This document shows, in pieces, positions 2,768 through 63,784 of a stretch of 64,000 bases of DNA. Every line of letters starts with the position of its first letter. Within the stretch, counting starts at the first letter, position 1. The notes under the pieces are model-generated. The model was not told the DNA's origin. It saw only the letters and a program-made list of their open reading frames with translations, and did not search any database. A program made the translations under genes and the position numbers. This DNA comes from Candidatus Moraniibacteriota bacterium (lineage in GTDB: Bacteria; Patescibacteriota; Minisyncoccia; Moranbacterales; UBA11712), in assembly GCA_028695025.1 (NCBI GenBank), contig JAQVJV010000002.1, forward strand, positions 18,998-82,997, in the 5' to 3' direction.

Positions 2768-5700
2768 ATGTCTCAAGAGGCCAAAACCCTCGGGGTGAAA
2801 GAGTCTTTCAGCCCGCAATCCTCTCTCCATAAGAGGAAATTTTTCAACCGGCGCGCAATGGTGTCCCTTCCGAACTTGATCGAAACGCAAACCATGTCAT
2901 ATGACTGGTTTCTCGCGGAAGGTATGCGTGAACTCCTCGATGAGGTTAACCCAATTGAGGATTTCACCGGAAAAGATTTGGAACTTTCTTTTGGAAAATA
3001 TTATCTTGACGAGCCGAAATACGACGAGAAAACGTCGAAAGAAAAAAATATCTCTTTTGAGGCGCCGCTCCGGTGCGCGGTGAGCCTTCTCAACAAACAG
3101 ACCGGGGAGGTGAAAGAACAGGAAGTTTATCTTGGAGACTTGCCGATCATGACCGACCGGGGAACTTTCATCATCAACGGCGTGGAAAGAGTGGTGGTGA
3201 GCCAGCTTATCCGAAGCCCGGGAGTCTTTTTCACGATGGAATATCAGAAGGGAAAGAAACTTTTCGGGGCGAAAATCATTCCGAACCGCGGAGCTTGGCT
3301 CGAAATGGAAACGGATCTTGACGGAGCCATTTGGGTGAAAATCGACCGCAAGCGAAAAGTGGCGATCACTTCTCTTTTGCGGGCTTTTGGCATTTCCACG
3401 GACGAGCTTTTGGCCAAAACTTTCGCCGATGTGAACAAAGGCGAGACGAATTATCTTGAAGCGACGATTGGGCGCGACGCGGCGAAGACCCAGGGAGATG
3501 GATTCAAGGAGGTTTACAAAAGAATTCGTCCGGGGGATCTCGCCTCCGTTGAAAACGCGCGGCAGATGATCGAATCGATGTTTTTCAATTTTGAGAGATA
3601 CGATTTCGGAAAAGTGGGGCGATACCGCTTGAACCAGCGTTTGGATGTGGATGAGCCGAATGACGAAGCGCATCGAATTTTGCGTCCGGAAGATTTGGTG
3701 CTGATCATCAAGGAAATTATCAATCTTAATAATAATCCGATGGCGGAGCCGGATGATATCGACCACCTTGGAAACCGGCGGGTGCGTTGTGTTGGGGAGC
3801 TTGTGCAAAACAAATTTCGGGCGGGACTTGCGCGCATGGTGCGAAATATCAAAGACCGGATGAGTACTTGCGATCTTGCCATAGTTGTTCCAGGTCAACT
3901 CGTAAACTCGCGTCCGGTGGCGGCGGCAGTCAAGGAATTTTTTGCTTCTTCCCAGCTTTCGCAATTCATGGATCAGGTGAATCCGCTGGCGGAACTTGAA
4001 CACAAGCGGCGGCTTTCCGCGATGGGGCCGGGCGGTCTCACCCGCGAACGGGCAAGCTTTGAAGTGCGCGATGTCCACCATTCCCACTACGGTCGGATTT
4101 GTCCGGTGCAGACGCCGGAAGGCCCGAACATCGGATTGGTGAATCATTTGTCTTGCTACGCGCGCATCAACGAGTTCGGTTTTCTCGAGACTCCGTATCG
4201 AAAAGTTGAGTTGAAGGACGGCAAGCCGTTTGTCACCAAAGATATTGAATATTTGAACGCGACCGTGGAAGATCGGAAAGTTATTGCTCACGCGGATATC
4301 CTGATTGACGACGATGGATATATCCAGGAAGAAAAAATTGAAGCGCGGGTGAAAGGGAAGCCGTCGGTGATTGAAGCGACGAAGGTTGACTATGTCGATG
4401 TTTCGCCGAAACAGTGTATTTCAATTGCCACTTCGCTCATTCCGTTCCTTGAGCACGACGATGCTCACCGGGCTCTCATGGGTTCAAACATGCAGCGCCA
4501 GGCAGTATCTTGCATTCTGCCGGATTCGCCGCTGGTGGGAACGGGGCTTGAAGACAAAGCGGCGGCTGATTCGGGACAGGTGATCCTTGCGCGCGAAGAC
4601 GGGGAAGTGGCGGAAGTGGATGCGGCACATATCACCCTCAAGACGGAAAAAGACGGAAAATCAACGAAGAAAATTTATTGGCTCCAGAATTTCGAACGCT
4701 CGAACGCTTTCACTTGTATGAATCAGATTCCGCGGGTTTCCCGGGGACAAAAAGTGGCGAAAGGCCAGCTTCTCGCGGACGGAGCTTCGACGGACAATGG
4801 GGAATTGGCGCTCGGCCAGAATGTTTTGGTGGCGCTCATGCCTTGGGAGGGGAACAACTTTGAAGACGCTATCATCATTTCTGAACGGTTGCTTCAGGCG
4901 GATCGCTATACTTCCATTCATATTGAAGATTTTTCAGTGGATATCCGTGATACGAAGCTTGGCCCGGAAGTGGTGACGCGAGATATTCCGAATATCGGTG
5001 AAGAGCGGCTCAAAAATCTTGACGATACGGGGATCATCCATATTGGAGCGGAGGTTTCTTCGGGAGATATTCTTGTCGGGAAAATTTCACCGAAAGGGGA
5101 AGGCGATCTCACCCCGGAAGAAAGATTGCTTCGCGCCATCTTCGGAGAAAAATCAAAGGACGTGAAAGATACTTCGCTTTATCTTCCGCACGGGGAACAT
5201 GGAAAAGTGGTGGATATCAAAATCTTTTCGCGCGAGCAGGGCGACAAGCTTCCGGCAGGAGTGATCCAGCAGATTCAGGTGAGTGTGGCGCAGCTTCGCA
5301 AAATTTCAGTGGGCGACAAGCTTGCCGGACGACACGGAAACAAGGGAGTGATTTCGAAAATTGCGGCGGTCGAAGATATGCCTTGCCTTCCGGATGGCCG
5401 ACCGGTGGATATCATACTCAATCCGCTTGGAGTGGCTTCGCGTATGAACATCGGCCAGATTCTTGAGGCGCATCTCGGTTGGGCGGCTTCCGAACTCGGA
5501 TACAAAATCGCAAGTCCCGCCCTTGACGGAGTGAGCGAACAGAACATAAAAGAGGAACTTAAGAAAGCGGGCCTTCCTGAAGACGGAAAGATGCGGCTTA
5601 TGAACGGAAAGACAGGAGAGTACTTCGACGAAAAAACCATGGTGGGATATATGTATATCATGAAGCTCAACCACTTAGTGGAAGACAAAATTCACATGCG

Positions 5701-6052
5701 TTCTATCGGACCGTACTCGCTCATCACCCAGCAGCCTCTCGGCGGAAAAGCCCAATTCGGAGGCCAGCGCTTCGGGGAAATGGAAGTGTGGGCGCTCGAA
5801 GGATACGGCAGTGCGCATACGCTTCAGGAAATGATGACAATCAAATCGGACGACCAGCTCGGCCGCTCGAAAGCCTATGAATCGATCATCAAGGGCGAAC
5901 GGATCAAGAGTCCGAACATCCCGGCTTCTTTCAACGTGTTAGTAAACGAACTCAAGGGGCTTTGCCTCAATATCGAATCGGTCGGCGAGAAAACGGAAGT
6001 TGACGAGGAAGAGAAAACCGGATCGGAGAGAAAGGATGACGGAGAGGAATAA
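2768..6052 (+). CDS. rpoB: DNA-directed RNA polymerase subunit beta
   Basis: Motifs [69 protein letters not shown]. The ORF track starts at TTG 2747. ATG 2768 with GGAGAG 13 nt upstream is preferred. Confidence 0.97.
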
Positions 6053-6084
6053 ATTTTTTAAACTTATTGGAAACTTAAAATTTA

Positions 6085-6140
6085 TTGATCCTTGATCCCC
6101 GCCTGCAGCGCTATGCGCAGCATTGCGGGCAGGTTTGATC
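6085..6140 (+). promoter_or_regulatory. GC-rich structured element in the rpoB-rpoC intergenic region
   Basis: CCCGCCTGCAGCGCTATGCGCAGCATTGCGGGCAGG carries interleaved complementary arms (CCCGC/GCGGG, CCTGC/GCAGG) and internal palindromes AGCGCT and TGCGCA. Confidence 0.3.
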
Positions 6141-6156
6141 ACTGATCGCTGAAAAT

Positions 6157-9100
6157 ATGAATCAACAAAATGCCACCAAAGTGAGCGACTTCGACGCAAT
6201 CCGATTGAAGCTCGCGAGTCCCGACGATATCCTCAATTGGTCCCACGGCGAGGTGACAAAGCCGGAGACAATCAACTATCGCACCCAAAGATACGAGCGC
6301 GACGGTCTTTTTTGCGAAAAAATTTTCGGACCAGCCAAGGACTGGGAATGTTACTGCGGAAAATACAAAAAAATCCGCTATAAAGGCATCATTTGCGACA
6401 AGTGCGGCGTGGAAGTAACACGCTCGATCGTCCGGCGGGAACGGCTGGGGCATATCAAGCTCGCGGTGCCGGTTTCTCATATTTGGTTTTTGCGGGGCGT
6501 GCCTTCCAAAATCGGCTTGTCGCTCGGCATGTCGGCGCAGGAATTGGAAAAGGTGGTTTACTTTGCGAGCTATATTGTCATGGAAGTGGATGAGGATGCC
6601 CGCAAGGAAGCGCTTGACCGGCTGGAAGCGGAATACAAAGGCAAGCAGAAGAAAAGCGAATCAGAAAAAGAGAATGAAGAACTCAAGGGCGCCTATCAAG
6701 CCGGCCGGGAAGAACTCAAGAGCCTTCGCCGGTTCCAGATCCTTTCCGAAGTGGAATATTTCAATTTGTCGCTCAAATATGGCCATGTTTTCAAGGCGGG
6801 AATCGGAGCGGAAGCAGTCCGGCGTATTTTGGAAGGGCTCAATATTGAAGAGGAGATCGCCCGGATCAACAAAGAGATTGAAGACGACAAAATTTCTGAC
6901 AAGAAAAAACTTTTAAAACAACTCAAATTGTTCCAGGGGTTCAGCCAGGCCGGCCTTCGTCCCGAATGGATGCTCCCAACCGTGATCCCGGTCATTCCGC
7001 CGGATCTTCGCCCGATGGTCCAGCTTGACGGGGGACGGTTTGCGACTTCGGATCTCAACGATCTCTACCGTCGTATCATCAACCGCAACAACCGGTTGAG
7101 AAAACTGATCGAGATCGGCGCGCCGGAAGTGATTTCCCGGAACGAAAAAAGAATGCTCCAAGAAGCGGTGGATGCGCTGTTTGATAACTCTGCCCGTCGG
7201 GGACAAACTTCGGTGGCGGCTTCAACTGGACAGAAGCGGGCCCTTCGGTCGCTGGCTGATATGCTCAAAGGAAAGCAAGGACGTTTCCGCCAGAACCTTC
7301 TTGGAAAGCGGGTGGATTATTCCGGTCGGAGCGTGATTGTGGTCGGACCGAAACTGAAACTCCATCAGTGCGGTTTGCCGAAGAAAATGGCTCTTGAACT
7401 TTTCAAACCTTTCATCATCAACAAGCTGATCGAAAGGGAATATGCCCACAACGTGCGAAGCGCTGGAAAAATGGTGGAATTCGAAGCGGAAGAAGCTTAT
7501 GAAATTCTTGACGATATCATCGAACATCACTATGTGCTTTTGAACCGCGCCCCGACCCTGCACCGTTTGAGTATCCAGGCTTTCCAGCCGGTGTTCATCG
7601 AAGGAAAAGCGATCCAGATCCATCCGATGGTATGTTCGGCTTTCAACGCGGACTTCGACGGAGACCAGATGGCGGTCCATGTGCCGCTCACCGAGGAAGC
7701 GCGCACCGAAGCGGGAAACATAATGCTTTCGGCGAAAAACCTTTTGAAGCCGGCGAGCGGAGACCCGATCACGATCCCGTCGCAGGACATGGTGCTCGGT
7801 TGTTACTATATGACCCATATCATGCCGGGCCGCACCGGAGAAGGAAAAATTTTTGCAACACCCGAAGAAGCGAAACTGGCCTATCATTTCGGAAGCGTTG
7901 ATCTCAAAGCGGAAATCGAAGTGGATTTTGGAACGGAAAGAAGGAAAACTTCTGTGGGCCGGATTCTTTTCAATGAAATCATGCCGGTGGAAATCGGTTT
8001 CGTGAATGAAGAAATGGACAAAGGAAAATTGAGAAAGATTGTGGCGCAGTGCCTTGAGATATCTGGACGGGACGAAACGGCCAAATTCGTGGACGAACTC
8101 AAAAATTTGGCATTCTCGCTTGTCACCCGTTCCGGAATCAGCTGGGGGATGGATGACCTTGCTGTTCCGGAAGAAAAGAAAAAGATCATGGAAGACGCTG
8201 AAGATCGGGTGGAGCTCATCAACAAGCAATATGGCATGGGGCTTCTCACCGACCGGGAAAGAAAAAGCCAGGTGATCGAGATTTGGAGCGAAGCGAAGAA
8301 TAAAATCACGGAAGCGGTGCGCGCTTCTCTCGACAAAGAAGGCCCGGTATATTCCATGGTATATTCCAAAGCGCGCGGCACGGAAGCGGTGGTGGTGCAG
8401 ATGACCGGAATGAAAGGGCTGGTGGCCGGTCCGACCGGGGAAACGATCGAACTGCCGATCAAATCATCGTTCAAAGAAGGTTTCAACGTCCTTGAATATT
8501 TCATTGCGACCCACGGAGCCCGGAAAGGTATGGCGGACACCGCCCTTCGGACGGCGACGGCCGGATACCTGACGCGGCGGCTTGTGGATGTGGCGCAGGA
8601 TGTCGTGGTTCGGGAAGTCGATTGCGGCGACGATCGGGGAAATTTCATGTATCGCGAAGACTCGGACGTGGTCGGCATCAGCTTTGCTTCCCGCATCACC
8701 GGACGCTATTTGATCGAAGATGTGGCTGATCCCAAGACGAAAAAAGCTATCCTCAAGGCGGGAGATCTCATCACGAAAGAAAAAGCGGAAGAGATTGAAA
8801 AAGCGAAAGTGGAAAAAATAAAGATCCGGTCTGTCGTCACTTGCCAGAGCCGGCGCGGAATATGCCAGAAATGCTATGGAATGGACCTGGGCCGGAACGA
8901 ACTTGTGCAGATCGGACAAGCGGTGGGAATCGTGGCGGCGCAGGCTATCGGAGAGCCGGGAACCCAGCTCACGATGCGTACTTTCCACATCGGAGGCGTC
9001 GCCGGAACGGATATCACCCAGGGACTTCCGCGCGTGGATGAAATTTTTGAATCCCGCCCGCCGAAAGGAGAAGCCGCCATTTCCGAAGTGGACGGGCAGG

Positions 9101-14970: not shown

Positions 14971-15006
14971 CCCCCTCTCTAGTCTCCCCCTTGGCAGGGG
15001 GAGAGG
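14971..15006. repeat. Palindromic repeat variant (CCCCCTCTCTAGTCTCCCCCTTGGCAGGGGGAGAGG)
   Basis: CTCCCCC/GGGGGAG stem with loop TTGGCA. Sits between trmB2 and ftsK. Related to the CCCCCTTT...AAAGGGGG subfamily. Confidence 0.6.
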
Positions 15007-17321: not shown

Positions 17322-17404
17322 TATTATGAGGTATAATATCAAAAAACAAACACAAAATAAGAAAAGCAGGAATTTCCTGTTTTTATAGTGGGAAAAAATA
17401 AAAA

Positions 17405-17500
17405 GTCAAACGTCAAAAGTCAAAAATTCAAGTCAAAATTAAAAAATTTCTAGTTTTGCAACGTGATTTTGATTTTTGATTTTTGAACTTTGAATTTCTA
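17405..17500. repeat. Heptad-spaced direct repeats GTCAAA(A) x4 followed by TTTTGA(T/A) x3-4
   Basis: GTCAAA at 17407, 17414, 17421 and 17434. ATTTTGATTTTTGATTTTTGAACTTTGAATTT at 17468-17499. AT-rich region upstream of the rodZ-like gene. Confidence 0.6.
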
Positions 17501-17502
17501 TT

Positions 17503-21945: not shown

Positions 21946-22995
21946 TTAAATCTTGAACTCAATCACATCACCATCTTGGACAATATAATCTTTTCCTTCC
22001 GTGCGGAGCGTTCCCAATTCGCGGGCGCTGGCCCACGATCCGGCCTCGAGCAACTTTTCCCAGCTGATCACATCCGCGCGGATGAATTTTTCTTCGAAAT
22101 CGGTGTGGATGGCGCTTCCGGCCTGTGGGGCGCTTGAATTTTTCTTCACTGTCCAGGCGCGGGTTTCGTCGGGACCGGTGGTGAGGAAAGTGATGAGCCC
22201 TAAAATTTCATAGGCTTTGAGAATCAACTGATCAAGATTTGATTTCATGCCAAGTTCTTTGGCTTCCTCCACCGACATTTCGGAAAGTTCTTCTTCTATT
22301 TTGACATCGATAGGAACAGTATTTTCGAGAAGATTCAATCTTCGGTCTCCGAAGGTTGAACCTTCAGAAATATTCGTATTCAAGACAAACAACATCGGCT
22401 TCCAGGTGAGAAGCTGTATGTCGCGGACAAGCGAAAAATCCTCTTCTGATAATTTCAGTTCGCTGGCCAGTTTCCCCCCATCCAAAATATTTTTGATATT
22501 TTTCACAATTTCAAGCGCTTTTGCGGCAACTTTATCTTGTCCGCGGGCTTCTTTTTCAAGTCTCGCTATTCTTTTTTGCACGGTTTCAATGTCGGCGAGA
22601 ATGAGTTCGGTGTTGATCACTTCGACATCGCTCTCGGGATCAATCTTATTGTGAACGTGGGTGATGTCGCTATTCTCGAATCCGCGAACGACTTGCGCGA
22701 TTGCGTCCACCTCCCGAATATGCGAAAGGAATTTGTTTCCCAAGCCCTCGCCTTCGGCCGCGCCGCGGACCAGTCCCGCGATGTCGACAAACTCAACCAC
22801 CGTCGGGACGATTTTCGCCGAGCCTGACATTTTCGCCAGTTTTTCGAGGCGCTCATCGGGCACGCGAACAACACCGACGTTCGGTTCGATGGTGCAAAAA
22901 GGATAATTGGCAATATCCACCGGATTTTTGGTGAGAGCTTTGAACAATGTCGATTTCCCGACATTTGGAAGCCCTACGATTCCGACCCGAAGCAT
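21946..22995 (-). CDS. ychF: Ribosome-binding ATPase YchF
   Basis: GIVGLPNVGKSTLFKALT G1 motif. NTEL...TGPDETRAWTV TGS domain at the C-terminus. 349 aa. Confidence 0.92.
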   Translation of the reverse strand: MLRVGIVGLPNVGKSTLFKALTKNPVDIANYPFCTIEPNVGVVRVPDERLEKLAKMSGSAKIVPTVVEFVDIAGLVRGAAEGEGLGNKFLSHIREVDAIAQVVRGFENSDITHVHNKIDPESDVEVINTELILADIETVQKRIARLEKEARGQDKVAAKALEIVKNIKNILDGGKLASELKLSEEDFSLVRDIQLLTWKPMLFVLNTNISEGSTFGDRRLNLLENTVPIDVKIEEELSEMSVEEAKELGMKSNLDQLILKAYEILGLITFLTTGPDETRAWTVKKNSSAPQAGSAIHTDFEEKFIRADVISWEKLLEAGSWASARELGTLRTEGKDYIVQDGDVIEFKI

Positions 22996-23669: not shown

Positions 23670-23700
23670 ATCAAGAAATCAAAATTGAAAAATAAAATCC

Positions 23701-23748
23701 GCCAGTCTGCGATGTTCTGCAAACTGGCGGTTCTTTTTACGCCTTTGA
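23701..23748. terminator. Bidirectional terminator hairpin, copy 1 of an identical 48-bp repeat
   Basis: AATAAAATCCGCCAGTCTGCGATGTTCTGCAAACTGGCGGTTCTTTTT. 12-bp stem with one mismatch, followed by a T-tail. Confidence 0.7.
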
Positions 23749-24618: not shown

Positions 24619-24735
24619 CCTGCTTCCTCCTCAAAGCTGAATTTTACGCTGAAACATCGCATTCTCTGTTAGGAAAAGCGATAAATCATTAAAGCAATAA
24701 ATGTCCCTGATGTCAATCTGGGCCATTTTTCAGTA

Positions 24736-24783
24736 AATAAAATCCGCCAGTCTGCGATGTTCTGCAAACTGGCGGTTCTTTTT
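24736..24783. terminator. Terminator hairpin, copy 2 of the identical 48-bp repeat
   Basis: Identical to 23701-23748. Confidence 0.7.
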
Positions 24784-26786: not shown

Positions 26787-26825
26787 ACCTCACCCCGTCC
26801 CTCTCCTTATCAAGGGAGAGGGAGT
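26787..26825. repeat. Palindromic repeat element copy (ACCTCACCCCGTCCCTCTCCTT-ATC-AAGGGAGAGGGAG)
   Basis: Same family. Lies immediately 3' of manC on the minus strand. Confidence 0.8.
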
Positions 26826-29370: not shown

Positions 29371-29460
29371 GCCCCTCTCCTTTTCCTAAAGGGAGAGTTG
29401 GAGAGGGTTTATTTATAACAAAAATCCCCCTTTAATCCCCCTTTATTAAAGGGGGAAAAT
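29371..29460. repeat. Two adjacent palindromic repeat copies (CCCCTCTCC...GGAGAGGG and CCCCCTTTATTAAAGGGGG)
   Basis: Both subfamilies of the hairpin repeat lie directly after the pmm stop. Confidence 0.7.
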
Positions 29461-35366: not shown

Positions 35367-37268
35367 ATGAAAAAAACAACAAGGCCGGTAGACGGAGTTT
35401 CCGCCCAGACCGGCCGAAAAAAGGAAATCCGCTCCAAAAGCGGACAAAGTGTTCGGCGCCGCCGCCGGTTCAATCCGGCGAAGAAAAAAATGGCTGCGCC
35501 GAGTCCTGAAGAAAATGTGCTCCGTCTCACTTCAAGCCCCGCTTTCCAAAAAGCGCTTGCGAGGAAGGCGGAATCACAGAAAAGCGCTCCTTCAAGGAGC
35601 AATACTCTTCGCATCATCCCTCTCGGGGGGCAGGAAGAAGTCGGCCGCAACATGACGGTTTTTGAGTATGGCGAAGATATCGTGGTCCTTGATATGGGAC
35701 TCCAATTTCCGGAAGAAGATATGCCGGGGATTGACTATATCGTTCCGAATACGAACTATCTCAAAGGCCGGGAAAAAAATATCCGCGGGGTGATTTTGAG
35801 CCACGGACATCTTGACCACATCGGGGCGGCGCCGATCCTCCTCAAAAAACTGAATTATCCGCCGGTGATCGGGCGTGATCTCACCTTGGCGCTTGTGAAA
35901 AAGAAGCTCGACGACCATGAAAAAGGTTCGGCCCAGAAACTCAAAGCGATGCGGGTGAATTCGATCCGTGACAAAATCCGCCTTGGAAAATTTGAAGTGA
36001 ATTTCTTTGATGTCGAGCATTCCATCATGGACGCGGTCGGAGTGATTCTCAAAACTCCCTCAGGAACGGTTATCCACCCGGGCGACTGGACGATGGGGAA
36101 AGATTCGATGAGCGGAAAAATGATCACCTACCATCATCTTGCGAAACTTCCGAGCCCGCGCATCGTGATGCTCGAGAGTTTGGGCGCGGTGGATACGCGT
36201 ACGGTAACGACTACGGACAAGGAAATGTATGAAAATATCGAAAGGTTGATTTCCAAAGCCCGGGGCCGGGTGATCATCGGCACGTTTTCCTCGCAGATCC
36301 GCCGTATCGGGCATATCATTGAATACGCCGGGAGCATCGGAAAAAAAGTGGCGCTTGACGGATACAGCATGAAGACGAATATCGAAATCGCAAAAGAACT
36401 CGGATATGTGAAAGCTCACAGGGAAACGCTCATTCCCATCTCGGAGATCCATAACTATCCCGAGAATAAGATTGTTGTGATTTGCACGGGGGCGCAAGGC
36501 GAAGGGAATGCGGTACTTTCCCGCATCATCACGGACAACCACCGCTACGTCAAAATCCAAAAAGACGACACAGTGATATTCTCTTCCTCGGTGATTCCCG
36601 GGAATGAACGGACGATCCAGCGGCTGAAGGATAACTTGTATCGCAAGAGCGACAATGTGATCCATAGCGACATCATGGATGTCCATACAAGCGGACACTC
36701 GAACGCGGAGGATATCAAAAATATTCTTCGCCAGATGAAGCCGGATTTCTTTTTGCCGGTCTATGCCAACCACTATATGCTCAAGGAAGCGGCGCGGCTG
36801 GCTCGCGAGATCGGGATCAAAAAAGAAAATATATTTGTGCTCGACAACGGGGATCTCATTGAATTTGAAAAAGGAAAAGCGCGGGTCCAACCCCGGAAAG
36901 CCGACACGAGCTACGTCATGGTGGACGGGCTCGGAGTGGGCGACATCGGCCAGGTGGTCCTTCGCGACCGCCAGCTCCTTGCTCGTGACGGGATGTTCAC
37001 GATCGTGACGATCATTGATTCGAAAACGAAGCGCGTTATCGGCGAGCCGCAAGTGACAAGCCGCGGGTTCATCTACGTCAAGGAAAATTTCGACCTGGTG
37101 AACGCGACCAAGCGCAAAGTGAAGGAAGTGGTGCACAACGCGACGGCGAAAGATGAATCGATCGATTGGAATTATGTCCGTGACCAGATCCGCGACACAG
37201 TCGGCCAGTTCCTCTTCCAAAAAACCGAACGCCGGCCGATGGTTTTGCCGGTGGTGATTGAAGTGTAA
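35367..37268 (+). CDS. rnj: Ribonuclease J with ~85-aa basic N-terminal extension
   Basis: HGHLDHIGA metallo-beta-lactamase motif, beta-CASP and C-terminal domains. N-terminal K/R-rich tail. Confidence 0.92.
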   Translation: MKKTTRPVDGVSAQTGRKKEIRSKSGQSVRRRRRFNPAKKKMAAPSPEENVLRLTSSPAFQKALARKAESQKSAPSRSNTLRIIPLGGQEEVGRNMTVFEYGEDIVVLDMGLQFPEEDMPGIDYIVPNTNYLKGREKNIRGVILSHGHLDHIGAAPILLKKLNYPPVIGRDLTLALVKKKLDDHEKGSAQKLKAMRVNSIRDKIRLGKFEVNFFDVEHSIMDAVGVILKTPSGTVIHPGDWTMGKDSMSGKMITYHHLAKLPSPRIVMLESLGAVDTRTVTTTDKEMYENIERLISKARGRVIIGTFSSQIRRIGHIIEYAGSIGKKVALDGYSMKTNIEIAKELGYVKAHRETLIPISEIHNYPENKIVVICTGAQGEGNAVLSRIITDNHRYVKIQKDDTVIFSSSVIPGNERTIQRLKDNLYRKSDNVIHSDIMDVHTSGHSNAEDIKNILRQMKPDFFLPVYANHYMLKEAARLAREIGIKKENIFVLDNGDLIEFEKGKARVQPRKADTSYVMVDGLGVGDIGQVVLRDRQLLARDGMFTIVTIIDSKTKRVIGEPQVTSRGFIYVKENFDLVNATKRKVKEVVHNATAKDESIDWNYVRDQIRDTVGQFLFQKTERRPMVLPVVIEV

Positions 37269-57961: not shown

Positions 57962-58037
57962 GGTTTTTGCGAAATACGAATTAAGCGAAAATACGAAAAG
58001 TTATTTTGCTTTTTTTAGTATATAACTAGTTATGCGG

Positions 58038-58643
58038 TTAGGCAAGTTTGCGAAAATTGAACGCCAGAATAGCAATGCCTATAAAGTAAAAAACAGAAAG
58101 TGAAATAACAACAAGATAGTTTGTGAAATTGCCCTTTTGGATGACGAGAAAATTATAAAGCAGGTGGTTGAGAACAGGGAAGAAGAGAATTTTGACCGGT
58201 TTTAAAGGGGTAGAAAAAGTGTTTGAGGAAATAAAAACGCCCATCAAAAAAGCGGTGAGGGTGTGAAGGGCAAGGATTGATCCCAGGGAAAATAATATCT
58301 GCGGCTCATGGATCCGGAAGGCTTGGAAAACTTCCGGATTGGCATAAAATATCAAGCCGATTTCGGAAAGCCCCCAAAATGCGCCGAGGAAAAAAGAAGC
58401 AATGGCAAGCTTCACCCCGGAAAGTTCGATTTTTTTCCGGATAACAAAAAATATTGCCCAAAATTTGGACAGTTCTTCAATGATCACGGAAACAGCCAGA
58501 AAACAGGTGAGGTTTTGATAAAAATTGGAAACTATTTCCCGTTGCCAAAAAACGTCGGCGGCCACGGCAATAATCTGCTCCAAAAATACGGCTATGGCGG
58601 CAGAAACAACGGCGAGAATGATGATTTTTATTGCGGTTTTCAT
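58038..58643 (-). CDS. Polytopic membrane protein, possible PrsW/CPBP-type intramembrane protease
   Basis: IIEELSKFW (EExxK-like) in TM1; about 6 TM helices. The ORF track extends to 58697, overlapping tsaD. Confidence 0.35.
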   Translation of the reverse strand: MKTAIKIIILAVVSAAIAVFLEQIIAVAADVFWQREIVSNFYQNLTCFLAVSVIIEELSKFWAIFFVIRKKIELSGVKLAIASFFLGAFWGLSEIGLIFYANPEVFQAFRIHEPQILFSLGSILALHTLTAFLMGVFISSNTFSTPLKPVKILFFPVLNHLLYNFLVIQKGNFTNYLVVISLSVFYFIGIAILAFNFRKLA

Positions 58644-58647
58644 TTTT

Positions 58648-59760
58648 TTATAGGGCCAATCCTGCGTCGGCCTCCAGATTTTTCCAGTTGGTTTCAAATT
58701 TCTTTTTGTTTTTGGCGAGAGTGTATTGGAAGTATCCGGCGACGGCGATCATGGCGGCGTTATCGAGCGAGTATTGAGTATCGGGCATGAAGTATAGAGT
58801 ATTTTTCAGATTATTTTTGATGGCTTCTCCGAGCTGTTTTCGCAGTTCTTCATTCGCGGAGACTCCGCCGCCAAGCAAAATCGTTTTCGGCTTGTATTTT
58901 TTTGCCGCTTTCAAAGTTTTTGCCACTAAAACGTCAATGACGGCTTGCTGAAATTCGGCACAAAGCGCGGTGGTCATTTTTTTGTCTTTCAATATCACCG
59001 GATTTTTTTTCACAGCATAAAGAGCGGCGGTCTTGAGGCCGGAAAAAGAAAAATTGAGATTATTCGAATTAAGCATCGGCCGGGGGAGCCGAAGGCTCAA
59101 CCTTCGGCGGTCCGAAGGTTGAGCCTTCGGATTTGCGGATTTTTGCGCGGTCAAAATTTTTTCAGCTTCAGCCGCAACTATCGGTCCGCCGGGATAACCA
59201 AGATTCAAAATTTTCGCCACTTTATCAAAAGCCTCGCCAGCCGCATCATCCAGGGTTTCTCCGATAATCCGAAAGTCCATGTGTTTCTTCATGAGTATGA
59301 GCTGTGTATGCCCGCCGGAGACAATTAAGGCTAAAACCGGAAATTTGATAGATTTGGAATTTGGAATTTGGTTATTGGAATTTTCGCGAACAAAGTTCGC
59401 GTATATGTGTCCCGCAATATGATGCGCTCCGACAAGCGGTACGCGCCAGGCGTAGGCGAGAGCCTTCGCCGAATTGGTGCCGATGAGAAGCGCCGGGATG
59501 AGCCCCGGACCCTGGGTGACGGTGATGATATCAATGTCTTTCGGCGCAAGTTTGTTTTCCCGGATGGTTTTTTTCAGAAGAAGCGGCAGGTTTTTAAGAT
59601 GCTCCCGGGCGGCAAGATTGGGGACAACTCCGCCGAAAGGAGCGTGGATTTTCACTTGCGATGACACTAGGTCGGAAAGCACCTGAAAGCGGCCTTTTTC
59701 GGCTTTCACGAGAGCGACGGCGGTTTCATCGCAGGAAGTTTCAATGGCGAGGATATTCAT
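58648..59760 (-). CDS. tsaD: tRNA N6-adenosine threonylcarbamoyltransferase TsaD, with a 14-aa palindrome-encoded insertion
   Basis: MNILAIETSCDETAVAL. AHHIAGH metal site. GGGVSAN. Insert ...KAQPSDRRRLSLRL... encoded by the 59089-59130 palindrome. Confidence 0.9.
   Translation of the reverse strand: MNILAIETSCDETAVALVKAEKGRFQVLSDLVSSQVKIHAPFGGVVPNLAAREHLKNLPLLLKKTIRENKLAPKDIDIITVTQGPGLIPALLIGTNSAKALAYAWRVPLVGAHHIAGHIYANFVRENSNNQIPNSKSIKFPVLALIVSGGHTQLILMKKHMDFRIIGETLDDAAGEAFDKVAKILNLGYPGGPIVAAEAEKILTAQKSANPKAQPSDRRRLSLRLPRPMLNSNNLNFSFSGLKTAALYAVKKNPVILKDKKMTTALCAEFQQAVIDVLVAKTLKAAKKYKPKTILLGGGVSANEELRKQLGEAIKNNLKNTLYFMPDTQYSLDNAAMIAVAGYFQYTLAKNKKKFETNWKNLEADAGLAL
59089..59130. repeat. GC-rich 19+4+19 nt palindrome CCGAAGGCTCAACCTTCGG-CGGT-CCGAAGGTTGAGCCTTCGG inside tsaD
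   Basis: Each 19-mer is itself a 7-bp-stem hairpin, and the two are exact reverse complements. In-frame, 42 nt. Confidence 0.9.
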
Positions 59761-59846
59761 GAGATAAGTATAGAGTATTTAGTATAATGTATAAAGTTTT
59801 TCTTCTGCCAACCAAAAACCGCCCAAGAGAGGGAGGTTTTTTAAAT

Positions 59847-59921
59847 TGGTAGCCCCAAGGGGAGTCGAACCCCTCTTTTCAGGATGAAAACCTAATGTCC
59901 TAACCGATAGACGATGGGGCC
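59847..59921 (-). tRNA. tRNA-Glu (anticodon TTC), CCA encoded
   Basis: GGCCCCA acceptor (G1-U72 wobble). TTAGG-TTTTCAT-CCTGA anticodon arm. AGGGG-TTCGACT-CCCCT T arm. ACCA 3' end. Confidence 0.85.
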
Positions 59922-60040
59922 GCTTGATGCGGCGATACGCTGGATATCATAGCAAAAATGGGTGAATTCGTCAAGAATTGCGGATCCAGGCAAATTCCGG
60001 ATGCTTTGAAAAATCCAGCCGATTTGATATAATCGGCTAT

Positions 60041-60385
60041 ATGAAAAAGGTTGAGAAAAATATCTCTTTAGGCGAGCTTCGGCAGATGGCTGAAAATATG
60101 TTTGGCAACCTGGTGAAAGCGGTGGTTGATGTCGAAAAAGGAACCATGGCGGTTGACGCGGAACTCCATGCCGATGAGGAAGCTTTTCTTTTGGAAAAAG
60201 GTTCACAACAAAAAAATCTTTGGGGAATCAATCTTTATCCGGAATTTTTCGGCCAAGATGATTTTGTGGAATTCGATTCGATGGTCAATCTGCGCCCTTC
60301 GCAGGAAAATCGCAGCCGGGGAGTGGAAAATCCGGAAATTCGAAAAAAAATCCGGGAAATAATCGCTAATTTAGTCACGAAATGA
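60041..60385 (+). CDS. Hypothetical protein
   Basis: MKKVEKNISLGELRQMAENMFGN... The ORF track starts at 59978. No motif recognised. Confidence 0.4.
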   Translation: MKKVEKNISLGELRQMAENMFGNLVKAVVDVEKGTMAVDAELHADEEAFLLEKGSQQKNLWGINLYPEFFGQDDFVEFDSMVNLRPSQENRSRGVENPEIRKKIREIIANLVTK

Positions 60386-60714
60386 AGCCCCAGCATCAAC
60401 AATTGGCGGATGGAAAATGGGAGAGTATGGACTTTTTTCAGCAAATGGCCAATGTCGGCAGTGAAGTGGAGCGGGCGATCAGATGGAACGAAAAGAAAAA
60501 CGCGGCTTATGGCCGGATGGCCTTTGAAAGGTCTCTTGAGCTTCTGGATTTCACGATTGCGGACAGAAAAAACAGGAAGAGGCTGAAAGAACTCTTGAGA
60601 TTGAGAGAATTTTTGGCCGATTATTTCTTTTTCGGGAATATTTATCGGTCAACAAAAAAAAGCTGGCAGAACTATTTTTTCAGTTTCAATTATGCCGCCA
60701 GGCTCGGACGCTGA
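60382..60714 (+). CDS. Hypothetical protein
   Basis: 110 aa. ATGA start/stop overlap with the upstream ORF. Confidence 0.4.
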   Translation: MKPQHQQLADGKWESMDFFQQMANVGSEVERAIRWNEKKNAAYGRMAFERSLELLDFTIADRKNRKRLKELLRLREFLADYFFFGNIYRSTKKSWQNYFFSFNYAARLGR

Positions 60715-63187: not shown

Positions 63188-63784
63188 TTGAAAATATTAA
63201 GCCGCCGATTCTATTCTCAAAACACAATCAAGATTGCCCAAGAACTTCTGGGTTGTTTTCTTGTCCGGGAATATCGCGGAAAAATTATGAAAGTGATAAT
63301 CACGGAAACAGAAGCCTATATTGGGGAAAATGATTTGGCGTGTCATGCGTCGCGCGGTCGGACGCCGCGGACGGAAGTGATGTATGGCGTGCCGGGGCAT
63401 GCCTATGTATATATGATCTATGGGATGTATCATTGCCTGAATGTTGTGACGGAAGAAAAAGATTTTCCCGCGGCGGTTTTGATCCGGGGCGGGATAAATC
63501 CCTCTCCAGCTCTCCCTTTAGCAAAGGGAGAGAGTCCGGGTTTCCCCCTTTGGCAAAGGGGGACTAAGGGGGATTTAAACGGTCCCGGAAAACTCTGCCG
63601 GTTTTTGAAAATTGACCGAAAACTTAATACATGGGATCTCACAAAAAGCGAGAAATTGTGGATTGAGGAACGAGATTCGAAAATAAAATTGCCGAAAGTG
63701 ATAAAGTCTCGGCGTATTGGCATCGATTATGCGAAACATTGTAAAGAATATTTATGGAGATATTCCCTGTCATCCCGCACTTGA
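63188..63784 (+). CDS. mpg: DNA-3-methyladenine glycosylase (Mpg/AAG family) carrying an in-frame palindromic-repeat insertion
   Basis: ETEAYIGENDLACHASRGRTPRTEVMYGVPGHAYVYMIYGMYHCLNVV...AVLIRGG[INPSPALPLAKGESPGFPLWQRGTKGDL]NGPGKL...RIGIDYA. The bracketed segment is encoded by two hairpin repeats. Confidence 0.8.
   Translation: MKILSRRFYSQNTIKIAQELLGCFLVREYRGKIMKVIITETEAYIGENDLACHASRGRTPRTEVMYGVPGHAYVYMIYGMYHCLNVVTEEKDFPAAVLIRGGINPSPALPLAKGESPGFPLWQRGTKGDLNGPGKLCRFLKIDRKLNTWDLTKSEKLWIEERDSKIKLPKVIKSRRIGIDYAKHCKEYLWRYSLSSRT
63505..63575. repeat. Two palindromic hairpin repeats inside mpg (CTCTCCCTTT-AGCA-AAGGGAGAG and CCCCCTTTG-G-CAAAGGGGG)
   Basis: Same repeat family as the intergenic copies. 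Located in a surface-loop position of Mpg. Reading frame preserved. Confidence 0.85.

Follow-up and report, generated by a model that had tools for sequence, protein, structure and literature searches.

A REPIN-like hairpin doublet within tsaD of a Moranbacterium and its probable link to RAYT-like transposases

The 64,000-nt stretch analysed here (the window hereafter) comes from contig JAQVJV010000002.1 of a Candidatus Moraniibacteriota genome (GCA_028695025.1) and contains the essential tRNA-modification gene tsaD on its minus strand (58648..59760, 370 aa; Pfam PF00814; protein accession MDD3486937.1), the product of which has Thermotoga maritima TsaD as its best PDB match (E 3e-74). Inside this gene, at 59089-59130, is a doublet of two 19-nt hairpins. 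Arm 1 (CCGAAGGCTCAACCTTCGG, 59089..59107) reads CCGAAGG-CTCAA-CCTTCGG and arm 2 (CCGAAGGTTGAGCCTTCGG, 59112..59130) reads CCGAAGG-TTGAG-CCTTCGG, with the 4-nt spacer CGGT between them (59108..59111); none of the three is assigned a strand. Each arm has a perfect 7-bp stem (8 bp counting the flanking base) and a 5-nt loop, and arm 2 is the exact reverse complement of arm 1. At 42 nt, the doublet fits the reading frame as 14 codons, and its translation, PKAQPSDRRRLSLR, makes up residues 211-224 of TsaD, between ...AAEAEKILTAQKSAN and LPRPML. This doublet, the hairpin family to which it belongs and a group of proteins resembling the transposases associated with repetitive extragenic palindromic (REP) sequences are the subject of what follows.

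A repeat search of the window recovered the two arms as 100% complementary over 19 nt and 4 nt apart. The 19-nt unit corresponds to the short palindromic unit, of about 20-60 nt, that defines REPs, and the minimum-energy fold of the doublet is a single 19-bp stem, which is the larger hairpin formed by two inverted units in REP doublets forming hairpins (REPINs). As coding-strand RNA this stem reaches -43.3 kcal/mol (z = -6.8), with none of 200 shuffles equally stable, and as DNA the doublet folds at -29.2 kcal/mol (z = -6.3). Dinucleotide shuffles of the window give an expectation of 0.00 for matches to the 19-mer at up to 3 mismatches. A preliminary description of the locus, made from its letters alone, had reported two reverse-complementary 19-mers, each a 7-bp-stem hairpin, with a GC content above the local average. 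Direct reading and the repeat search agree on the structure, and the GC content is 64% in the doublet versus 45% across the surrounding 2 kb.

Chance, an ordinary lineage-specific loop or an assembly artefact had to be considered at this point, as the loop is variable in all relatives and chimeric reads can create palindromes. However, no shuffle reaches the structure and the open reading frame (ORF) is intact. The identical gene and element are also found in a separate Logan assembly of run SRR22315504, produced with a different assembler from possibly the same reads, and the same element occurs in many other assemblies. We therefore regard such an origin as excluded for practical purposes. 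The idea of an intrinsic terminator was likewise rejected: there is no T-run beside the doublet, which sits mid-gene in an ORF that continues past it. A scan of 58000-60500 against Rfam at a permissive threshold returned the neighbouring tRNA and one weak chance match, and nothing for the doublet. The tRNA gene (59850-59921, minus strand, 56 bits) lies directly upstream of tsaD.

The doublet falls in the segment of TsaD that runs from GYPGGP...A to LPRPM. Among 120 relatives (58-78% identity) this segment varies from ~17 to >50 residues and has no conserved sequence, in line with the earlier placing of the palindrome in a variable part of the protein. The PKAQPS...RRLSLR peptide of the doublet was found in none of the 120. 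In the shortest relatives the segment measures 17 residues; in the window it measures 32, or 18 once the 14 codons are taken away, and the T. maritima loop is 17 residues shorter than that of the window TsaD. The first description had proposed that an intragenic palindromic insertion added about 14 residues here, and that an alignment of orthologues might instead reveal the same insert conserved without any palindrome in the DNA. The lengths and the missing peptide bear out the former, and the latter is not the case, since none of the 120 relatives has the insert. In an AlphaFold (AF2) model of TsaD the low-confidence parts are both variable loops, residues 125-135 and 216-224, with a predicted local distance difference test score (pLDDT) below 50 at 216-224. 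The tsaD doublet is thus an in-frame insertion in a tolerant loop of the protein, as opposed to a loop that is conserved, and is presumably neutral for TsaD. Because its arms are perfect and it is private to its lineage, the copy is young.

Moreover, the TsaD loops of relatives are rich in peptides that back-translate to inverted repeats, such as QGSTF...RSNL, KARLFP...GIPQSQAL, CHCEERSDEAI...SLRSLAMT and PPKADQPLAEK. At the DNA level, one relative (P0024, L120 8066-9226) has a ~57-nt inverted-repeat element, AAGGTTCGACCTT...AAGGTCGAACCTT, that is present in each of its two variable loops. Two others (P0007 and P0004, on L119 and L121) have in common a TCCGCCAGAGGCGGA-TCAGCCTATGGCTGA double hairpin between AAAATTC direct repeats, which may represent a target duplication. 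The presence of these other palindromes marks the loops of TsaD as recurrent landing sites for palindromic DNA. As a separate observation, the first variable loop of the window TsaD (59331-59390) is built of AAATTCC heptamer repeats, AAAGTCA heptamers are found there in relatives, and an inverted array of similar heptamers lies at 17397-17502.

A search for the 19-mer elsewhere, also proposed at the outset, led to a decayed second doublet in the window and to many copies in other genomes of the candidate phyla radiation (CPR, or Patescibacteria). The one other match in the window, at 22349-22367 with 2 mismatches, pairs with 22327-22345 to give a doublet of the same hairpin family, GAGAAGATTCAATCTTCGG-TCT-CCGAAGGTTGAACCTTCAG (22327..22367, no strand assigned). 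It lies in frame in the variable linker of ychF (21946..22995, minus strand, 349 aa) and encodes EGSTFGDRRLNL, a peptide common to just the two closest of 120 YchF relatives (83-84% identity). At the same site the YchF gene P0122 (84% identical) has an intact doublet, GAAGGTTCAACCTTCGG-AAA-CCGAAGGTTGAACCTTC, and P0142 has a doublet of a different hairpin. The ychF copy is shared by two relatives and its arms are decayed, and it is therefore old and inherited. The window contains 6 hairpins that combine the family loop YTSAR with a stem of 5 bp or more, versus 0.48 expected. A single hairpin with the family loop, gctcc-TTCAA-ggagc, stands at 35586-35600 inside a 643-aa ORF, and may be a remnant or chance.

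One genome per species (GTDB) was scanned for CCGAAGGYTSARCCTTCGG, giving at least 117 loci. Among the matches listed, to which the counts in this paragraph refer, some 45 came from low-GC metagenome-assembled genomes of CPR type, comprising Moraniibacteriota, Parcubacteria, Nomurabacteria, Taylorbacteria, unnamed bins and some labelled Bdellovibrionales. Those from high-GC bacteria were mostly lone terminator-like hairpins. Lone hairpins are mostly intergenic, and the perfect doublets (8/8, including that of the window) all lie in frame within ORFs of 254-792 aa. The extragenic location that gives REPs their name is accordingly not seen here, either for these eight or for the two window copies. 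Five of the perfect doublets are in hosts identified by Pfam as PheT, a TilS-like PP-loop ATPase, MetRS, LigA and an ABC ATPase (L064); the remaining hosts outside the window, neither of them Pfam-scanned, are a second ABC ATPase (L017) and a 663-aa membrane ORF (L106). Doublets with one degenerate arm were also found in frame, in a MiaB-like radical-SAM gene (L011) and in AtpD (L108). Of the hairpin's six frames just one contains a stop, and which of the five open ones is used varies by gene (PKVEPS, EGSTFG, RRLNLR and others). The spacers of the other doublets read agaa, ctaa, agca, aatt, att and gaa. Most doublets are inverted; that of L017 is direct, with both units in the same orientation.

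Two of these loci carry further features. On L017 (849-2207 and 3802-4101), the full-length ABC-ATPase copy bears its direct doublet at the same codon position at which a 99-aa 5′ fragment of a paralogue stops, immediately after a single hairpin. The hairpin therefore marks a duplication or rearrangement breakpoint. On L091, the LigA ORF (about 5330-7600) contains, besides its doublet, a CHSRPDREAS...SRLRGNDN-type peptide that resembles the CHCEERSDEAI...SLRSLAMT inserts in TsaD loop 1 of several relatives, and which is probably yet another palindromic element family. No doublet with CCGAAGG-type stems was found in viral contigs. The idea that the heptamers act as a DNA-uptake sequence was dropped, CCGAAGG/CCTTCGG occurring 16 times in 128 kb of both strands versus ~8 expected, with no 7-10-mer strongly over-represented.

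In five of the loci retrieved by the hairpin alone, among the matches listed, the hairpin adjoins a gene of ~225 aa. The encoded protein has the HUH motif NPNHYH and a conserved Y...N region, and scores 32.8 bits against Pfam Y1_Tnp (IS200-like), for which the cutoff is 23. Its 1,483 relatives come mostly from Moranbacteria and Parcubacteria. Some of them are named 'REP element-mobilizing transposase RayT' by the Joint Genome Institute (JGI), and one member of the family is 'transposase IS200 like' at NCBI. We modelled the protein with AlphaFold (AF2; pLDDT 82, predicted template modelling score (pTM) 0.83), and the top PDB fold match of the model was 4er8_A, the Escherichia coli REP-associated tyrosine transposase (RAYT) bound to its REP hairpin (E 1e-5, template modelling score (TM) 0.63 on the target). 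IS608 and ISDra2 TnpA came next, with E about 5e-3. We refer to the protein as RAYT-like.

A metagenome scan returned 473 relatives of the RAYT-like protein, and the best 80 loci were examined. Most of these 80 have the same architecture. Upstream, a perfect hairpin stands ~30-50 nt before the start codon and is followed by a TATAAT-like box; internally, an in-frame hairpin or inverted doublet lies ~180-205 nt into the gene, just before the HUH strand; downstream, a hairpin or doublet is found 5-20 nt past the stop codon. The arrangement was confirmed for the close homologues P0242 and P0244 (runs SRR22388274 and SRR22387921). Stem and loop differ among loci yet agree within a locus, with at least 27 stem types over 74 loci. 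The same stem occurs in the upstream and internal copies of 41 of 73 loci and in all three copies of 33 of 71, versus 4.2% between loci. Four loci (L060, L123, L205, L206) have the exact CCGAAGG-CTCAA-CCTTCGG of the window (19/19) before, inside and after the RAYT-like gene, so that in these other genomes the repeat flanks a RAYT-like gene as it does in REP systems. Two of them (L123 and L206) have the CTCAA/TTGAG doublet just downstream of the gene. Moreover, one genome, that of Bacterium BMS3Abin15, combines a RAYT-like gene and its three hairpins (L060) with a doublet of that hairpin inside an ORF (L106). Cognate hairpins were also found kilobases away from RAYT-like genes (22 copies in 272 kb), several of them in long ORFs.

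An in-frame internal copy of the cognate hairpin, single or as an inverted doublet, is present at about +180 to +245 nt within the gene in L060, L039, L021, L072, L091, L123-L202, L205 and L206. We found no description of such a hairpin within a RAYT gene in the literature searched. It could serve autoregulation or self-targeting, and its fixed position hints at a regulatory use. With the very stable mRNA structure of the tsaD doublet (-43 kcal/mol), this might suggest that the latter is a selected cis-acting RNA or DNA signal, such as an RNase III site, a translation pause or a protein-binding site. We consider this highly improbable for tsaD. The element is carried by 0/120 TsaD relatives, the same doublet occurs at non-homologous places in at least 7 unrelated housekeeping genes, the ychF copy is decaying, and there is neither an Rfam match nor a T-run for termination.

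The hairpin-flanked genes also bear on whether the doublet might be a miniature derivative, of the kind known as miniature inverted-repeat or palindrome-associated transposable elements (MITE/PATE-type), of an autonomous IS200/IS605-like insertion sequence (IS). The hairpin-gene-hairpin units would then be mobile ISs of ~750 bp and the doublet a remnant of a left end and a right end. A Y1 transposase gene together with its two flanking hairpins is indeed about the size of IS200; the flanking hairpins are in the same orientation in some loci (L060 and L136), like IS200/IS605 ends, and inverted in others; and the doublet of L017 is direct. The likeness extends to the enzyme, IS200/IS605 elements having a Y1 HUH transposase that recognises subterminal hairpins on single-stranded DNA; the Pfam family of the CPR protein is Y1_Tnp, and the NCBI name given above points the same way. 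However, the fold of the protein is nearer to RAYT than to IS608 or ISDra2 TnpA, doublets are mostly inverted and not direct, and there is no sign of identical multi-copy full units. The paralogues L170 and L195, on one contig, differ in their hairpins, which identical IS copies would not. Furthermore, the genes downstream of the transposase recur across loci with different hairpins (a P-type ATPase-like 'M.KQIYNLS', Fpg 'MPELPEV' and LigA), which suggests vertical inheritance of the transposase gene at fixed sites. An origin from such an IS is a close variant of the interpretation preferred below, and is unlikely.

The systems closest to these observations are REP/REPIN-RAYT (Nunvar 2010; Bertels & Rainey 2011, PMC3116915; Ton-Hoang 2012; structure 4ER8). 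As in these, the repeat is short and palindromic and often forms an inverted doublet able to fold into one long hairpin; a gene for a Y1 HUH transposase, closest in fold to the E. coli RAYT, is flanked by the repeat; and each transposase clade has its own repeat, with conserved transposase neighbourhoods as described for RAYTs. The CPR units differ in being just 19 nt long, perfect palindromes with a 5-nt loop and without the GTAG/CGTC tag. Their copy number is seemingly low, the doublets are mostly intragenic and the spacers, of 3-5 nt, are not conserved. A copy of the hairpin also lies in frame within the transposase gene itself, and the protein is distant from curated RAYT models.

Residence inside genes has a precedent in intragenic REPs, a documented exception to the extragenic location (Di Nocera et al. 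2013, PMC3733652). These lie in frame in known proteins, over half of them as dimers encoding 20-30 residues, often in replication, repair and RNA-related genes, and have been read as neutral inserts in loops or linkers. The CPR doublets are similarly in-frame palindromic dimers inside known genes. In contrast, the published cases are GTAG/CGTC-tagged, come from Proteobacteria, Opitutus and Rickettsia, and form a minority of a mostly extragenic population. The present element occurs in a CPR bacterium and is shorter, a doublet giving 14 residues, and every one of the eight perfect doublets among the matches listed is intragenic. The classic palindromic selfish DNA of essential genes is the Rickettsia palindromic element (RPE; Ogata et al. 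2000; reviewed in PMC10969869). RPEs and the CPR doublets are alike as in-frame palindromic inserts in unrelated essential protein genes of a reduced genome, compatible with the fold and function of the protein. However, RPEs are elements of ~100-150 bp with a conserved translation product of ~30-50 residues, and no transposase is known for them, whereas the CPR element is 42 nt long, is read in five different frames across genes, has a candidate transposase and resides in a Moranbacterium.

Taken as a whole, the anatomy fits REP/REPIN-RAYT, in that the palindromic unit is short, occurs in inverted doublets and surrounds the gene of a transposase of RAYT fold, with one repeat type per clade. 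We consider it likely that the tsaD element is a REPIN-like inverted doublet of a 19-nt REP-like hairpin that is cognate to a CPR-specific clade of RAYT-like Y1 (HUH) transposases, and that it is selfish DNA residing in frame in a tolerant loop. Such hairpins would be moved by the RAYT-like transposase, which the source genome presumably encodes. By analogy with the RAYT and IS200/IS605 enzymes that have been studied, the transposase would recognise the hairpin folded on single-stranded DNA, cut alongside it and rejoin it elsewhere, and cycles of cutting and rejoining would scatter single hairpins and doublets through the genome. As these genomes are almost wholly coding, many copies would land in genes. 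Only those copies would survive that keep the frame, avoid the one stop-containing frame of the six and lie in a tolerant surface loop. The tsaD doublet would have landed in its permissive loop, or been assembled there, and then survived selection.

Several observations weigh against this interpretation. As regards the transposase, the sole NCBIfam match of the ~225-aa protein, REP_Tyr_transpos, reaches 22-25 bits versus a cutoff of 80; a sequence profile of the RAYT-like family found no match among PDB chains; and tblastn found no RAYT-like gene in the 64 kb of the window. As regards the repeat, the GTAG or CGTC tetranucleotide that REPs have at one end is missing: at least 60 hairpins beside RAYT genes show no conserved tag of this kind and no other asymmetric flank, their flanks just extending the palindrome (T...A). 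Copy number seems low, with 2 doublets in the 64 kb (0 expected) and the heptamer CCGAAGG just about twofold over expectation. As regards insertion, there is no DNA-level empty site for tsaD, the closest relative being just 78% identical, and the ychF doublet adds no length to its linker relative to other YchF proteins or solved YchF structures, which a simple insertion does not predict. We ascribe this to a later compensating deletion or to a replacement in ychF, and mark the point as unexplained. In a comparison with solved structures, the AtpD doublet likewise lies in a variable segment, and its net length gain is small or nil. With such gains in ychF and AtpD, the picture of a pure insertion is clean for tsaD only.

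The last of these observations concerns how doublets arise. Spacer and arm order vary between doublets of one genome (L059 versus L063), so that doublet plus spacer is not an obvious replicating master copy, unlike in classical REPINs, and the doublet may form locally instead of moving as a unit. An origin in place without any transposase would go further: template switching during replication would copy a single hairpin into its reverse complement, and would recur in mutation-tolerant loops. In its favour are the exact reverse complementarity of the two arms, the varying spacers and arm order even within one genome, a ychF doublet that replaces sequence and adds none, and the simple heptamer repeats in the TsaD loops of relatives, which indicate slippage-prone DNA. 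It accounts, however, neither for the origin of the first hairpin nor for the recurrence of one 19-mer across unrelated genes and genomes, nor for the way in which the hairpin sequence follows the transposase clade. Template switching may contribute to the formation of doublets, but as the whole explanation it is improbable, and mobilisation of a REP-like hairpin by a RAYT-like transposase is the reading that we prefer.

Other palindromic repeats were noticed in the window. A second GC-rich palindrome family, CCCTCTCCTT-NNN-AAGGAGAGGG and variants, has eight copies in the 64 kb (339-361, 400-422, 2120-2142, 14983-15004, 26798-26823, 29436-29456, 63510-63532 and 63543-63563), some of them inside ORFs of 150-200 aa. 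In addition, an identical 48-nt terminator-like hairpin, AAATAAAATCCGCCAGTCTGC...GCAAACTGGCGGTTCTTTTT, occurs twice (23689-23738 and 24734-24783), 1,045 bp apart and with unrelated flanks, and is another dispersed palindromic repeat.

The tsaD element itself probably represents a variant of the known REP/RAYT kind, and the family-wide picture is more promising than the single copy. Nothing relevant on RAYT or REP systems in Patescibacteria/CPR was found in the searchable literature, which is weak evidence of absence. Tentatively, and without yet favouring it over its denial, we put forward that Moranbacteria and Parcubacteria possess a previously undescribed variant of REP-RAYT suited to almost wholly coding genomes. 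In this variant the transposase gene would keep its own in-frame hairpin at a fixed site. Doublets would persist mainly in essential genes as modules of ~14 residues, repeatedly remodelling the same loops (TsaD loops 1 and 2 and the YchF linker) and marking rearrangement breakpoints, and selfish hairpins would be a major source of the lineage-specific insertions of CPR proteins.

The proteins of CPR bacteria are known for unexplained lineage-specific insertions. For some of these, RAYT-linked hairpin repeats that land in frame in essential genes provide a concrete source, and one open to testing. In marker genes such as TsaD and YchF, inserts of this kind make sequences look more divergent than they are, and the young and old copies provide a natural series in which to follow the accommodation of selfish DNA by proteins. 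The copy that lies in frame within the transposase gene points to a regulatory mechanism that is directly testable. Lastly, these findings extend REP/RAYT biology, studied mainly in Proteobacteria so far, to ultra-small genomes.

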